A stretch of DNA of 64,000 nucleotides from Flavobacteriaceae bacterium (GCA_030538275.1 JAUNUH010000011.1:46683-110682), one strand, 5' to 3'. Counted from the first letter of the stretch, positions 37,731 through 64,000 are shown. A program made the numbers and translations. The notes: generated from the letters alone by a model not told the origin.

Positions 37731-38022
37731 CAAAAAGAGCCGATTTTATAAATGAACACAATTCTTTCAAAATGGTTCAACTACGCCATAGATTTTAATA
37801 AAGATTTTTAAGTCAAATTTCAATCATCTATAAATCAAATATATACATTTTAATTTGAGATGTTGATTACGTATTTCTACGTATTGACCTGTTTTGATTA
37901 TCGAAATATTTTTGCGTAGTAATAATTGAAGTTTGGAAACCAATTTTTATAAGCTAATGTATATATGAATTTATTCTTTGGTTCCAAATGCCATAAATAA
38001 ATATGAATACAAACTCTTAACA

Positions 38023-40581
38023 ATGAAAAAGCATTTATTTACTATTAAAAAAATTCTGTGTACACTGTTTTTAGTTTTTGGTTTTAATCTGTTATTGTTT
38101 GCCCAAAATTCCCACTCAGGGATTTCAGCCAACGGTAAATTCAGAGTTACAAAAACTGCAGATGTTTTCACAGTTCCATCGGGTGGTGGAGAGGTTTCTT
38201 ACAGCTATCAGGTAAAAAATATATCAAACCAACGCCTGTATTATGTCTCTGGAAACGATGACAAATGTTCGCCCATGGAGTTAGAGAATGGTTTGTCAAG
38301 AACCTATAGTTATTTGGCCAATCGATGGATTTATTATCTTTCTCCCGGTGCAACCGCCACCTGGGAATGTTCTGAATATATTTCTGAAACCACTACGAAT
38401 ACGGCTACATTCAAATTTGCCGAAAGCTATTCAAGTTTTCGCCGTTTTCAATGGACGGGTACATCAACAGGAAAGGCAAGCGTAACCGTAGAGCGTGAAT
38501 TGCCCAATCAAGGTGATATCACATGCAGCGGCCTTTGGTTTGGCGGTGATAGAGATGATAATAACGGATTGCTCGGAAAAGTGGGAACCTTGTCACTACA
38601 AGGAAATGCAACTGCCGTTTTTGATATTCGTCAGCAAACCAACAATCGTAATAAAGTAGGAACTGCCGCAATGGCCGTAGATCCGCATGATCCAACACTT
38701 ATCTATTATATCCCTAGATCAGAATATTCTGCAGGGAATGTGACTTACGGCGGATTATATGTGTATGATACAGATACAGGAAGTTCTCGATATTTAAATT
38801 CATTCCCATCAACTGACTCCCATTATGTGCGTATGGGAATCGGTCCGAATGGGCTGGTTTGGGTGATCAACTCTGCTGGAAATGCCCGCAGTTTCAATCC
38901 TGTTTCGGGTAGCTGGACCAACAGAGGTCAAGTAAGGCTTCCTTCCAATTTTGATTGGTCTAGGATGCAGTCCGGAGATATCGCTTTTGACGGAAACGGT
39001 ACGATGTATATCATAGCTTCTGTCAATAATTCGCGCGATTCGGATGTGGGCTATCTCTTTACCCTCACTCAATCCCAACTACTGAGCGGAAGTCCGAATG
39101 CCTTACTTGTGGGTCAAATGGGAAATAAAGAATTTAATGGAATCGCTTTTACCGAAGACGGAAAATTGTGGGCCAGTAACCGCAGTGGTAGCAGATCTTA
39201 TCTTTACGAAGTAAATAAAGCAACGGGTGTAGCTACGCTGGTGTCCCAAATTACCGGTTTCAATGGTGTGAATGTGAGTGATTTAGGTTCTTGTGCACTG
39301 CCTATGGCTGATTTAGATTTGCAGAAAACAGTGTCGCCAGAAGAAGCTGTGAATCCTGGAGAAACGCTTACCTATACGATTCGTGCCTGCAATACAGGGT
39401 CGTTGATTGCTACCGACGTTTATTTGCGCGATGCCATTCCTGCGGGAACAACCTATCTACGCGGTTCTACCAAATTAAACGGAACTACAATGCAGGATAT
39501 AAATGGGCAAATGCCGTTTGCAACTTCAAAACAAATCAATTCTCCCAACTCACAAAATGGTAGAATTGCTGCAGGAAGCTGCGCCACCATAGAGTTTAAA
39601 GTGATTGTACAACAATTACAAGGAGAAATCTGTAATCAAGCTTCGATTACTTATACTGGTTCCAATGGCGAATTGCTGTCAGACAATCCTGAACTGCCTG
39701 GTGGTAATGACCTAACATGCCGTGATATCATTCCGCCGTCTCCAACACTTTCGATTCTGAAAAATTCATTGCCAACAAATCCTGTTACCATAGGAGATAC
39801 CATTCATTATGAGATTGTCGTAGGTAATCCTGGAACTGTGGAAGCCCGCTTTATCGAAATTACCGACACACTGCCTGCAGGCGTGGACTATGTGCCTAAT
39901 TCTGCGCGAAAAACCTATAGGATAACGTCCGGAACCAACAGAATTCAAACCACAGATGATGCCAATGCACCCCTACTTATGGTAGCAGCAGAAGAAGAAA
40001 TTAATCTGATGCCAAACGAAAGCATGACCATTACTTTTGATGCAATTGTGAATGCAACGGTAACAGACGGACAAATACTTGAAAATATTGCTACCGCACA
40101 AGCGCAGGGAATGTCCGAGCCGATTAGTGACAACGCTTTTAATGAAGTAATCATGCGTGAATACAGTATTTCAGGAACTGTTTTTTATGATCAAAACCGA
40201 CTGACCGATAACACTGTGAATGGTATTCCTTTTTCGCCAAAAGGAGGTATTTATGCTGTGCTGGTAGATACGGCAGGTCATGTGATGGCAACTTCATTGG
40301 TAAATAGTAGGTATCATTCTTCGCCTGGTACGTATCATTTTTCAGATGTAATTGGTGGAAGACAATACCGTGTGATTCTGAGAAAACAAGCACCTGTTGT
40401 AGGAGAGGTGATTAATGCAGCTATTCTACCCAATGCTTATTTCAGTACGGGAGAAAATATTGGAGCTGGTCCAGGATCAGATGGTACAATTGACAGTCAA
40501 TCTGCTGTATTTATGCTAAATGCAAATATCACCGATGTTAATTTTGGACTGTATTTCTTTGAACCGTTTACTGAAGCCTAA
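38023..40581 (+). CDS. cassette 1 protein a: large exported protein with a propeller-like region, two DUF11-type repeats and an SdrD-B/Cna-B-like end
   Basis: I trimmed the ORF 37978..40581 to MKKHLFTIKKILCTLFLVFGFNLLLFAQ (signal peptide, Q at +1). DUF11-like segments are LQKTVSPEEAVNPGETLTYTI...AIPAGTTYL and LKNSLPTNPVTIGDTIHYEI...LPAGVDYV. The SdrD-B-like segment is YSISGTVFYDQN. Confidence 0.8.
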   Translation: MKKHLFTIKKILCTLFLVFGFNLLLFAQNSHSGISANGKFRVTKTADVFTVPSGGGEVSYSYQVKNISNQRLYYVSGNDDKCSPMELENGLSRTYSYLANRWIYYLSPGATATWECSEYISETTTNTATFKFAESYSSFRRFQWTGTSTGKASVTVERELPNQGDITCSGLWFGGDRDDNNGLLGKVGTLSLQGNATAVFDIRQQTNNRNKVGTAAMAVDPHDPTLIYYIPRSEYSAGNVTYGGLYVYDTDTGSSRYLNSFPSTDSHYVRMGIGPNGLVWVINSAGNARSFNPVSGSWTNRGQVRLPSNFDWSRMQSGDIAFDGNGTMYIIASVNNSRDSDVGYLFTLTQSQLLSGSPNALLVGQMGNKEFNGIAFTEDGKLWASNRSGSRSYLYEVNKATGVATLVSQITGFNGVNVSDLGSCALPMADLDLQKTVSPEEAVNPGETLTYTIRACNTGSLIATDVYLRDAIPAGTTYLRGSTKLNGTTMQDINGQMPFATSKQINSPNSQNGRIAAGSCATIEFKVIVQQLQGEICNQASITYTGSNGELLSDNPELPGGNDLTCRDIIPPSPTLSILKNSLPTNPVTIGDTIHYEIVVGNPGTVEARFIEITDTLPAGVDYVPNSARKTYRITSGTNRIQTTDDANAPLLMVAAEEEINLMPNESMTITFDAIVNATVTDGQILENIATAQAQGMSEPISDNAFNEVIMREYSISGTVFYDQNRLTDNTVNGIPFSPKGGIYAVLVDTAGHVMATSLVNSRYHSSPGTYHFSDVIGGRQYRVILRKQAPVVGEVINAAILPNAYFSTGENIGAGPGSDGTIDSQSAVFMLNANITDVNFGLYFFEPFTEA

Positions 40582-40591
40582 TAATTAAATC

Positions 40592-40620
40592 ATGGAAACT
40601 TTTGTACATAACTTTAAAAT
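40592..40620 (+). promoter_or_regulatory. solitary ATGGAAACTTTTG box in the spacer between cassette-1 genes a and b
   Basis: Has the same ATGGAAACTTT core as the distal boxes of cassettes 2, 3 and 5. It creates the spurious N-terminal extension of ORF 40592. Confidence 0.3.
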
Positions 40621-40627
40621 TAAACAA

Positions 40628-62429: not shown

Positions 62430-62694
62430 GAATGAATTTTTTCAAAAATACTAATTAAAAACCAGAGTTGTGCTGCTTGTTAAAACCAAATGGGTATGAA
62501 GGGGTTGGGGTAAACAAAAAAAAGCTTGGAAATGCCTAAGTCCTTGATAGTTCAAAATTTAGACTAAACAAAAAAATACGTTGTTAAAATCGGTTGAAAA
62601 AAGATGAATTTTTTGCGTTGAAAACTCAAGATTTCTAAGTGAAAACTGCACATAAAAATATGTTTTTTAATGATAAAAATCAGGGTAAACGTGC

Positions 62695-62858
62695 TGGAAA
62701 CTTTCGTGATAAATTTTGATATAAATAATAATCATAAATAAATTAAATCTCTTTATAGTAAAGGGATTGATGATGGAAACTCAAATTTTAACATTTCATT
62801 ATCAAGTATTTATAATTAAGATATTTTTGTTCAAATTGAATTTTTGGAAATATATTTG
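62695..62858 (+). promoter_or_regulatory. cassette 5 control region: distal TGGAAACTTT box, proximal ATGGAAACTCAAATTTTAACATTTCA box, -7-like TATATTTG
   Basis: TGGAAAC starts at 62695 and 62774 (79 bp apart). TATATTTG lies at 62851 (77 bp after the proximal box), with TTG at 62827 as a possible -33 element. Confidence 0.55.
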
Positions 62859-63054
62859 CAGTGTCATTTGGCTGATATAATAAACTTCTTATAAAATAGA
62901 GAATTTAGAAATGATTTTTTCAGATGAAATTTTAAGCGAATTTGAGCGACAAAAAAGCCATGAAATTTGGGTTAAAAATTCCTCTAAAAATCAGCTTTAA
63001 AAAAAGACAAATCAACCGACAATGAACTAATCTCAATCAAAAAAATTAAAATCA

Positions 63055-64000
63055 ATGAAGAAAAATGTACAACTTTTACGAGCGCGAAATTATTTAAGTC
63101 AAACCCAATACTTCTATGCTGTATTGGCGGTACTGGGTATCCTGAGTTTTTCGATGTTGCAGGCGCAAACTTGCGTAACCAATGACGGGAAAATATGGAA
63201 TTCAAATGGCTACTGGCTTTTTACTACTACAGCAGATACTGTAAGCAATACATTTCAGAATAATCCAAGATTTAGATCTTTAACTAATAACAACTATTCG
63301 TTAGGGGATATAAATTTTGGTCCGGACGGGAAGCTGTATGGTTCGGCATGGTATGGAACGAACTTTGTTTCAGGTATTCGTGAATTACACGCTAATACAT
63401 TAAATGAACGAGATTCCCCAACCGATGGAACACTTCGAAAATCAGTTCCAACAAATACGGATTATGGCAATAATTCCCTTTATATAGACGCCATGTACAA
63501 CTTTTATTATGCGTATTATACGAACAGTAGTACAACCCAACCTGGTGTAGCACGAAAAGTTTATATAAATGGACCTAAAACAAATAATCAAAACCTAGTA
63601 TGGGTAGATGTGCAAACGACCATAGCATCAGAATTGAATACTGGTACTTCTACGGGGGATATCACTATTTTCAATGGTAAATTATATATGCTTTGGGCTG
63701 ATAAAACTTTTAATAATCAATGTGATACCAGTGTTAATTATTTTCTGCTTGAATTTGATATTAATGAAAATGGTGATTATGGTGGAAGTTATAATTATTA
63801 CTCCTTAGGTAAGGGGACCAACCCTCAAGCTCTTACCCATTTAAACGGTCAGCTATATGTTGGATTTTATTGTACTATATTTACATCTGTACATACCTCA
63901 AGTTTAGCAAAAATCAATTTACCTAGTGGGAACACACCTTTTAGCTATACCTATTTATCCCAAACTGGGGATAAAAATAATAATATGGGTAGAACAGGCC
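63055..64000 (+). CDS. cassette 5 protein a, partial (runs off the window): exported protein with a propeller-like N-domain
   Basis: The frame is open from the ATG at 63055 to the window end, so it is not in the track. MKKNVQLLRARNYLSQTQYFYAVLAVLGILSFSMLQAQTCVTNDG. The GDINFGPDGKLYG motif parallels [13 protein letters not shown] (cassette 2) and GDIAFDGNGTMY (cassette 1). Confidence 0.75.
   Translation, partial: MKKNVQLLRARNYLSQTQYFYAVLAVLGILSFSMLQAQTCVTNDGKIWNSNGYWLFTTTADTVSNTFQNNPRFRSLTNNNYSLGDINFGPDGKLYGSAWYGTNFVSGIRELHANTLNERDSPTDGTLRKSVPTNTDYGNNSLYIDAMYNFYYAYYTNSSTTQPGVARKVYINGPKTNNQNLVWVDVQTTIASELNTGTSTGDITIFNGKLYMLWADKTFNNQCDTSVNYFLLEFDINENGDYGGSYNYYSLGKGTNPQALTHLNGQLYVGFYCTIFTSVHTSSLAKINLPSGNTPFSYTYLSQTGDKNNNMGRTG

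Follow-up and report, generated by a model that had tools for sequence, protein, structure and literature searches.

The subject of this analysis is a conserved pair of exported proteins encoded in a 64,000-nucleotide stretch of DNA from a Flavobacteriaceae bacterium (GCA_030538275.1 JAUNUH010000011.1:46683-110682), called here the window. The + strand of this stretch carries five tandem cassettes, four complete and the fifth cut by the window end, in which a gene for an adhesin-type protein with a conserved four-cysteine C-terminal domain (CTD), termed b, is followed by a small gene, S, and in some cases preceded by another large gene, a. Comparison of profiles and alignments indicates that a single domain is shared by the S repeats and the b CTD, with one unit in the CTD and two in S, and the b-S pair recurs with unrelated passengers in four families of Bacteroidota. 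Judged by fold and by weak sequence signals, the unit is a phage-tail-fiber-type oligomerization module that Bacteroidota use in exported proteins. We tentatively favor, without putting it quite at an even chance, a 1:1 b-S complex that would form a single pseudo-threefold knot as the base of a variable adhesin, a reading drawn from sequence comparison and structural models.

One domain divided between two genes

The cassette genes, taken from the open reading frames (ORFs) and their translations, are as follows.

38023..40581, + strand: a1, exported passenger with a weak lectin-like/Tachylectin region, two DUF11/CLIPPER domains, DUF7507 and an isopeptide-type domain, without a PTL domain
40628..41884, + strand: b1, with its own signal peptide; four-Cys CTD at 41573-41884 with one PTL_trimer unit; CTD hidden Markov model (HMM) E 1.5e-42
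41910..42452, + strand: S1, 180 aa, exported, two PTL_trimer units (P0001, PF26696.1)
45797..49585, + strand: a2, 1262 aa, exported; N-terminal region without a domain match, DUF11, Big_9/cadherin-like domains and CshA repeats
49625..51676, + strand: b2, 683 aa; TSP3-like Ca-site repeats and a MAM-like region (both sub-threshold); CTD at 51380-51676
51696..52235, + strand: S2, 179 aa, two PTL_trimer units (P0003)
53299..55341, + strand: a3, 680 aa, RCC1-like propeller and Big_9
55371..56216, + strand: b3, 281 aa; CTD at 55917-56216; CTD HMM E 1.3e-48
56228..56779, + strand: S3, 183 aa, two PTL_trimer units (P0002)
58026..60557, + strand: b4, 843 aa, with a Pmp-repeat/right-handed beta-helix passenger joined straight to the CTD at 60270-60557; CTD HMM E 1.2e-45
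60587..61108, + strand: S4, 173 aa, two PTL_trimer units (P0004)
63055..64000, + strand: a5, start of cassette 5; signal peptide, then a region like the a1 and a2 N-termini by eye; no Pfam match; cut at the window end

An earlier, sequence-only reading of this DNA had drawn the same five tandem cassettes, and the ORF list and translations agree with it down to the coordinates; the within-cassette gaps of 11-46 nt also came out the same on re-checking. It called the proteins giant, which is a relative term for lengths of 281-1262 aa, and it held the cassettes to be paralogous, as the homology of the b C-termini and of the S proteins across cassettes confirms. Its claim that these two parts are conserved is likewise borne out. 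The two-repeat S1-S4 proteins are 35-44% identical in pairs over their whole length, and the last ~100 aa of b1-b4 are 38-56% identical, with four invariant Cys. Within-window HMM E-values lie far beyond chance: the CTDs reach 1e-42 to 1e-48, the S proteins 1e-50 to 1e-61.

On two points concerning these parts we depart from that reading. It took CTD and S for two different modules, but the C-terminal repeat of S aligns to the final ~50 residues of the b CTD (hhalign probability 95.5%, E 1.4e-8), which points to one domain family. Read from the alignments, the S unit runs from a short strand, VAIEK or GVIIG, through xLxLxS, K-G/A-hydrophobic-hydrophobic-LP-x-V and PxxGMxxYD to a hairpin and F/Y-x-G-x-x-W, and the b CTD unit reads VGIST ... 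LES..KGFVITR ... EGMxxYD..C.KLYxGxxWxC...C, with four added Cys. The two S units are joined by a length-variable, Ala/Thr/Ser/Pro-rich linker modeled at low predicted local distance difference test (pLDDT) values. Because S holds two copies and the b CTD a third, each b-S pair amounts to three homologous units, split 1 + 2. The four CTD Cys are kept in 51 of 52 homologues, which implies folding in an oxidizing compartment.

The second point is that the conserved parts, which the sequence-only reading could not place in a named family, both fall in PF26696, named PTL_trimer, where PTL may stand for 'phage tail-like'. Precomputed matches to PF26696.1 cover the window S proteins P0001-P0004, 179 S homologues and CTD homologues, and contig annotations place the family on b and S genes of relatives; the assignment draws on these precomputed annotations, with the window b CTDs tied in through the hhalign alignment and the CTD HMM. 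Scans of the conserved parts of S and b against NCBIfam and a Pfam release without PF26696 gave no match above threshold, and a PDB sequence search with the S profile gave no match. An exhaustive domain search returned 6536 cluster representatives at E ≤ 0.001. The sequence-only reading had named assignment of both parts to an already characterized family as a result that would refute it; this has come about in part, in that the family is catalogued, but our literature search found no paper and no experimental characterization for PF26696/PTL_trimer or for the b-S pair. As far as we could find, PF26696 is a catalogue entry only, and the 1 + 2 gene architecture is not derivable from the domain entry.

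Conservation of the b-S pair across Bacteroidota

A genome scan queried with the four window S proteins gave 43 loci, in which all six-frame ORFs were then scanned by HMM; word-indexed CTD searches returned short fragments only (3 and 56 matches), and passenger architectures were read from the loci. Within Weeksellaceae the loci belong to Chryseobacterium, Empedobacter, Epilithonimonas, Faecalibacter, Moheibacter, Cloacibacterium, Bergeyella and Profundicola, and beyond it to Flavobacteriaceae (Flavobacterium, Myroides, Paenimyroides), Sphingobacteriaceae (Pedobacter, Sphingobacterium, Parapedobacter) and Cyclobacteriaceae (Belliella). Because the closest relatives are Profundicola chukchiensis and Weeksellaceae bacterium KMM 9713, we regard the window genome as Weeksellaceae-type.

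Across these four families S lies 2-131 nt downstream of a same-strand four-Cys CTD ORF in 52 of 54 cases, 48 of 50 when the window is set aside, so that the synteny proposed from the window alone extends to other genomes. Every pair examined had the same unit count, one for b and two for S. CTD and S identities also correlate across pairs (Pearson r 0.83, reached by 0 of 2000 permutations), including among paralogues of the same genome, a pattern that shows cognate co-inheritance and is not in itself proof of binding. The earlier claim that S is the cognate partner of the b CTD thus holds in the genomic sense, that of adjacency and co-divergence. That S is a pseudogene fragment split off from b was rejected, because it carries a signal peptide of its own and over 50 loci conserve it. 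That S is an independent small secreted protein, duplicated along with b and functionally unconnected to it, we consider very improbable: co-inheritance alone would produce the co-divergence, but the adjacency persists across classes of Bacteroidota despite complete passenger exchange, with constant orientation and short gaps.

The sequence-only reading had made a a regular member of the unit. A large same-strand ORF just upstream accompanies only 9 of 42 complete b genes, three of them in the window; the conserved unit is b-S, not a-b-S, and a is optional. Passengers of different loci are unrelated to one another, b lengths run from 229 to >2000 aa, and in relatives an RCC1-like propeller, or a lectin-like region plus DUF11, is fused straight to the CTD. 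Multi-cassette arrays are common, with three cassettes in 20 kb in KMM 9713 and two in several other loci.

Within the window, the passenger domains named in the sequence-only reading are for the most part confirmed. DUF11, DUF7507, Big_9, cadherin-like, CshA repeat, RCC1, Chlam_PMP and Beta_helix domains score above the Pfam/NCBIfam cut-offs; MAM (E 0.068) and TSP3 are sub-threshold only, and the SdrD-B-like domain was unconfirmed in Pfam/NCBIfam scans of the cassette proteins. Newer Pfam annotations name the DUF11 and DUF7507 domains of a1 and a2 'CLIPPER' and 'CLIPPER_2'. Because DUF11 and DUF7507, both uncharacterized until then, are counted by a 2025 survey with the domains predicted to form intramolecular isopeptide bonds (PMC12617251), the a1 and a2 passengers may be covalently stabilized.

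Two small features accompany the a genes. At the a2 C-terminus (49400-49585, the last ~60 residues), two D-x-N-x-D-G-type segments look dockerin-like or EF-hand-like by eye, with no Pfam match. A 32-codon ORF, MRNFLSFFTFWIAFFFKSSELNAQYATTCYGF (53163-53261, + strand), 38 nt 5' of a3, encodes a signal-peptide-like sequence with an AQ cleavage motif and 8 further residues; its end faintly resembles the mature start of a3 (QYCPTTF), and it could be a start-region remnant or a small leader peptide.

Fold, export and proposed assembly of a b-S complex

Structural models place the unit among small oligomerization folds. The AlphaFold2 (AF2) model of the b2 CTD, based on a multiple sequence alignment (MSA), is a small soluble beta-meander with pLDDT 79.5 overall and >90 over the last 50 residues, and the MSA-based model of S2 (pLDDT 73, predicted template modeling score 0.64) has two three-stranded beta-meanders. 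When the CTD model was compared with PDB by Foldseek, the better matches were almost only trimerization modules, at probabilities of 0.85-0.97, among them TSP3 and TSP4 of phage CBA120, streptococcal phage HylP, Bordetella phage Mtd and the collagen XV/XVIII trimerization domain. The collagen match has a root mean square deviation of 1.9-2.0 A (XVIII 1.9 A) over 41 columns, at 12-15% identity and E of at least 0.28. The whole S model gave no PDB match below E = 1 and weak phage matches only in BFVD.

Sequence signals lean the same way. DUF2793 (PF10983), a domain of the RcGTA tail fiber and of phage fibers (PMC5026251), appears in seven of eight window proteins at 12-15.4 bits, and membership in it was rejected since these scores fall under the gathering cut-off of 27 bits. 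A superfamily link between the PTL unit and DUF2793 is nonetheless likely, because the multi-repeat relative P0209 scores 44.5 bits; P0209 also matches PHROG families at E 1e-25. S2 and the b3 CTD match PHROG families, 'tail fiber protein' among them, at E 4e-5 to 6e-4. Another relative, P0134 (2287 aa, six units), ends in a Peptidase_S74 intramolecular fiber chaperone and matches tail-spike and tail-fiber PHROGs.

The unit is also found in larger assemblies. Multi-unit relatives include P0168 (4319 aa, 14 units), P0209 (756 aa, 11 units) and P0125 (2642 aa), and a ~30-aa core, P..G..Y.T....Y.G..W, can repeat many times per chain. The S-type double unit occurs as an N-terminal module of longer exported proteins, namely P0140 and P0239 (with Fib_succ_major lectin fusions) and giant fibers. 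Exported proteins near cassettes at three loci (L029:4228-5709, L045:9492-9935 and L046:313-2559) carry, after the signal peptide, 'Q(V/T)GINT..P...LDV.G', which is like the S N-terminus 'QVAIEK....ILDF' and may represent a general strand motif at the N-termini of phage-fiber-like cell proteins in Bacteroidota.

Beyond the observed unit homology, fold class, strict b-S synteny and export signals, we infer a physical b-S complex, its stoichiometry and its surface location. Each cassette would be an operon for adhesin-type proteins that are Sec-exported and disulfide-stabilized. In the periplasm, one b unit and two S units would pack around one pseudo-threefold axis, giving a 1:1 complex on the pattern of a homotrimeric phage-fiber knot. 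S would thereby complete or cap the C-terminal end of b and provide a common base for very different passengers, through which the cell envelope would hold them or pass them on; five paralogous cassettes would then supply a repertoire of alternative binding specificities. We favor the single knot because the 1 + 2 count is constant in every examined pair across distant lineages, because the linker of S varies and is modeled at low confidence, as a structured shaft would not be, and because the short b-S gaps would suit equimolar synthesis.

The main rival, which we rate as less probable than the single knot, has two homotrimers. Here b would trimerize through its CTD into an adhesin with three arms, comparable to a multiplexin collagen or a phage tailspike, and an S trimer would form a two-knot rod docking end-on to the b trimer as adaptor or base, by analogy with separate trimeric proteins in branched phage receptor-binding complexes. 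Every structural neighbor is a homotrimerization module, the unit occurs 5-14 times per chain in giant relatives, one of which (P0134) has a Peptidase_S74 domain that implies three-chain fibers, and S-like modules sit N-terminally in the longer proteins P0125, P0140 and P0239, as fiber attachment domains do. Two homotrimers, however, give no obvious reason for a strict 1 + 2 count across distant families; the inter-unit linker of S, with its composition and low pLDDT, is unlike a structured trimeric shaft, and most of the passenger domains belong to types that function as monomers.

A transient role for S is the improbable further case. S might be a periplasmic assembly chaperone or cap that sits briefly in the trimer interface of the b CTD, blocking premature oligomerization or guiding disulfides, and is absent from the final structure. 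The gene order, a fiber-like gene followed by a small one, and its tight coupling match phage fiber/chaperone pairs, and S is made of the very domain to be chaperoned. It has, however, no similarity to any known tail-fiber assembly family, and the fusion of S-like modules to lectin and fiber passengers argues for a structural rather than a catalytic or transient role.

As for export, the sequences of all a, b and S proteins begin with a Sec signal peptide ending in (A/S/G)-Q, with Gln at +1, the usual signal-peptidase-I pattern in Bacteroidota. In the lipobox test, made by reading the sequences, S1-S4, b2-b4 and a1-a3/a5 have no Cys in the signal peptide, and only b1 has one, in an 'ILGC' absent from its paralogues. 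On these grounds identity as a lipoprotein or type V pilus subunit was rejected. Sorting domains for type IX secretion (by the T9SS), Por_Secre_tail/TIGR04183 and CHU_C/TIGR04131, had no match in a, b or S at permissive thresholds, and neighbor genes at other loci readily gave a CHU_C match; T9SS cargo identity was rejected, as neither a type A nor a type B sorting domain is found. A trimeric autotransporter adhesin was also rejected: there is no YadA-type beta-barrel Pfam match, and the modeled CTD is a small soluble beta-meander.

Several points weigh against the single knot. Two loci break the gene order: in one (L024) the CTD-bearing gene follows S, giving S then b, and in the other (L029) no CTD gene lies upstream of S and a large protein running off the locus follows it, where a reversed S-b order is only a guess. 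Synteny and co-divergence are equally expected from plain co-inheritance of neighboring genes. The Foldseek matches of the CTD all have E ≥ 0.08, which supports a fold class and is no proof of homology. Homotrimers of b and of S are an equally natural reading of the domain itself, the units of phages and multi-copy relatives being presumably homotrimeric. The weakest point, shared by every model, is that domain scans of a, b and S found no recognizable outer-membrane export or anchoring signal; because there is no T9SS CTD, no beta-barrel and only the lipobox-like Cys of b1, surface display is unexplained and, like the anchoring role earlier proposed for S, conjectural.

A possible tie to surface anchoring comes from 9 of the 43 loci, where a triad of genes follows b-S on the same strand; in some of them the gaps are a mere 4-10 nt.

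Triad gene 1: 417-533 aa, bearing a CHU_C type-B T9SS sorting domain (E 1e-29)
Triad gene 2: PorP/SprF-family protein, E 3e-67
Triad gene 3: OmpA/PD40/CarboxypepD_reg protein, PorE type
Triad loci: L010 (3790-8127), L012, L013, L018, L020, L021, L025, L026 and L027

All nine lie outside Weeksellaceae, in Pedobacter, Sphingobacterium, Parapedobacter, Flavobacterium chungangensis, Myroides and Paenimyroides; at a tenth locus, L024, a CHU_C protein (L024:2-1957) is directly upstream of S. Triads of type-B cargo, PorP-like and PorE-like proteins are known cell-surface anchoring units (PMC9143113). HMMs built from the triad genes of the nine loci found nothing in the window and nothing within 6 kb of any Weeksellaceae cassette, and the T9SS-triad link is for that reason real but lineage-restricted.

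In a tethering model that overlaps the others, b-S would bind the type-B-CTD cargo anchored by the PorP-like/PorE-like pair and so reach, or stay on, the surface by association, as a hitch-hiker or on a tether rather than through any signal in b-S itself. The nine triads, the tenth locus and the established anchoring role of such triads speak for this; we nevertheless hold it unlikely, since the triad genes are absent from the window and from the vicinity of the Weeksellaceae cassettes, and the adjacency perhaps reflects mere adhesin islands. To our knowledge, T9SS co-transport of partner proteins is not established. A broader proposition, that the b CTD with S constitutes an unrecognized envelope display principle of Bacteroidota, with a heteromeric knot of three units, one from the cargo and two from its partner, as export or anchoring handle for adhesins devoid of T9SS and lipoprotein signals, possibly coupled to PorP-like-anchored type-B proteins, appears to us doubtful.

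Surface proteins of Bacteroidota are usually explained by T9SS sorting domains or lipoprotein export. The adhesin-like proteins described here, members of a large domain family whose S-type partners occur in at least four bacterial families, have neither; instead they carry a phage-derived oligomerization unit and a dedicated two-unit partner. If the b-S complex is true, it would account for the assembly of hundreds of 'hypothetical' adhesins, a CTD gene followed by an S gene would be a simple genomic marker of variable adhesin loci, and the compact heteromeric 1 + 2 module might find use in protein engineering. The triads beside b-S suggest a testable tie to T9SS anchoring.

Genomic setting and comparison with known systems

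The cassettes were earlier held to be separately regulated and to end, weakly after cassette 1, in a stem-loop and T-run. The features that bear on this are the following.

44644..45351, + strand: TetR-family regulator upstream of cassette 2; TetR_N 42.6 bits
57074..57775, - strand: TetR-family regulator divergent from cassette 4; TetR_N 21.7 bits, under the cut-off of 24; paralogue by tblastn, E 1.8e-22
61746..62429, - strand: TetR-family regulator divergent from cassette 5
52236..52312, + strand: cassette 2 terminator, double hairpin and U-run, -31.6 kcal/mol, z -5.1
56802..56833, + strand: cassette 3 terminator, hairpin and U-run
61109..61187, + strand: cassette 4 terminator, double hairpin and U-run, homologous to that of cassette 2

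RNA folding agrees with the earlier account of the cassette ends: cassettes 2, 3 and 4 are each followed by a terminator, cassette 1 by no more than a weak AT-rich hairpin. The three TetR genes are paralogous and lie directly upstream of cassettes 2, 4 and 5; two exceed the 24-bit TetR_N cut-off (42.6 and 40.8 bits). Together with the terminators at cassettes 2-4 they fit cassette-by-cassette regulation, the regulation itself being what we infer. Chryseobacterium loci have AraC-type regulators in place of TetR. Just upstream of cassette 1, where other cassettes have TetR, lies a gene for a 198-aa LURP-one-related/Tubby-C-like protein (36888-37484, - strand; sub-threshold Pfam).

Cassettes 2 and 4 have a common double-hairpin terminator, UUCCCG...CGGGAG and then GAGAGAGGCCGUC...GGCGGUUUUUUU. 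After each follows a ~360-nt intergenic element (52385-52745 and 61205-61565) that contains internal direct repeats of ~90 nt as well as nested inverted repeats; its core is CGTCATTGCGAG / CTCGCAATGACG, mean column identity is 91% over aligned ~440-nt stretches, and it has no Rfam match. Because the 3' ends of the two cassettes match, the duplicated unit extends past S into the terminator and the repeat element, which could be a repeat like a miniature inverted-repeat transposable element or a substrate for inter-cassette recombination. An Rfam search of 36800-64000 gave no match, and a sigma-70 promoter scan gave matches at shuffle level. The Bacteroidota -7 motif TAnnTTTG lies upstream of each cassette and is not enriched in the window (100 against 85 ± 9 expected).

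The first 37 kb of the window are housekeeping genes, among them aconitase, UvrA, an Asn/Lys-type tRNA synthetase, RpoN, GlmS, a CysN-like GTPase and UDP-glucose dehydrogenase. Between cassettes 1 and 2, convergent with S1, lies a gene for a type IIA topoisomerase B subunit (42574-44424, - strand; parE/gyrB-like from its translation), so the cassette array is interrupted by an essential housekeeping gene. Origin of the region as a mobile element or prophage was rejected in view of the housekeeping flanks and of parE between cassettes 1 and 2, and it is no obvious island either.

Among known systems, the nearest by name is PF26696 PTL_trimer, which matches the window S proteins and the CTD homologues; its entry as such does not imply a paired 1 + 2 architecture. 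The trimerization or adaptor modules at the N-termini of phage tailspikes and fibers (CBA120 TSP3/TSP4, HylP, Mtd, and the DUF2793 of RcGTA Rcc00171) resemble the unit in their small beta-meander fold, in weak DUF2793 and PHROG tail-fiber signals and in having multi-copy relatives with Peptidase_S74. The cassette proteins differ from them in being chromosomal, with signal peptides, beside housekeeping genes; the b unit differs in standing C-terminally on non-fibrous adhesin passengers, in its four Cys, and in its partner S, which gives two units per chain.

In the fiber-chaperone pairs T4 gp37-gp38, Mu/P2 Tfa and those of R-pyocins, a small cognate gene lies downstream and its product acts on the C-terminal end of the fiber. 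The b-S pair is like these in placing a small cognate gene after that of a large binding protein, whereas S bears a signal peptide, matches no Tfa-type family and is a homologue of the very domain that it accompanies. A Tfa-type assembly chaperone was rejected as an identity for S, which has no Pfam, NCBIfam or PHROG chaperone match and carries a cleavable signal peptide, in contrast to the cytoplasmic Tfa.

T9SS type-B cargo with PorP/SprF- and PorE-like partners (SprB-SprF; PMC9143113) offers the same plan of a Bacteroidota operon, a variable adhesin with a conserved CTD and then a cognate small partner, and both kinds stand in one gene string in nine loci. The b CTD, however, is not CHU_C or Por_Secre_tail, S is no PorP/SprF beta-barrel, and no T9SS gene lies beside the window cassettes. 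Multiplexin collagens XV and XVIII are the closest compact structural match and, like b, have a small C-terminal oligomerization unit on a multidomain extracellular protein; they differ in being eukaryotic, with no sequence relationship.

The two-gene architecture, in which a variable adhesin bears one unit and a dedicated exported partner bears two, seems to be undescribed. So do the breadth of its occurrence, its amplification in tandem together with individual regulators, and the way in which some lineages embed it in T9SS type-B operons. By analogy, its closest functional counterparts would be a phage fiber with its downstream accessory, a type-B CTD adhesin with its PorP-like partner, and the C-terminal trimerization domains of the extracellular matrix.

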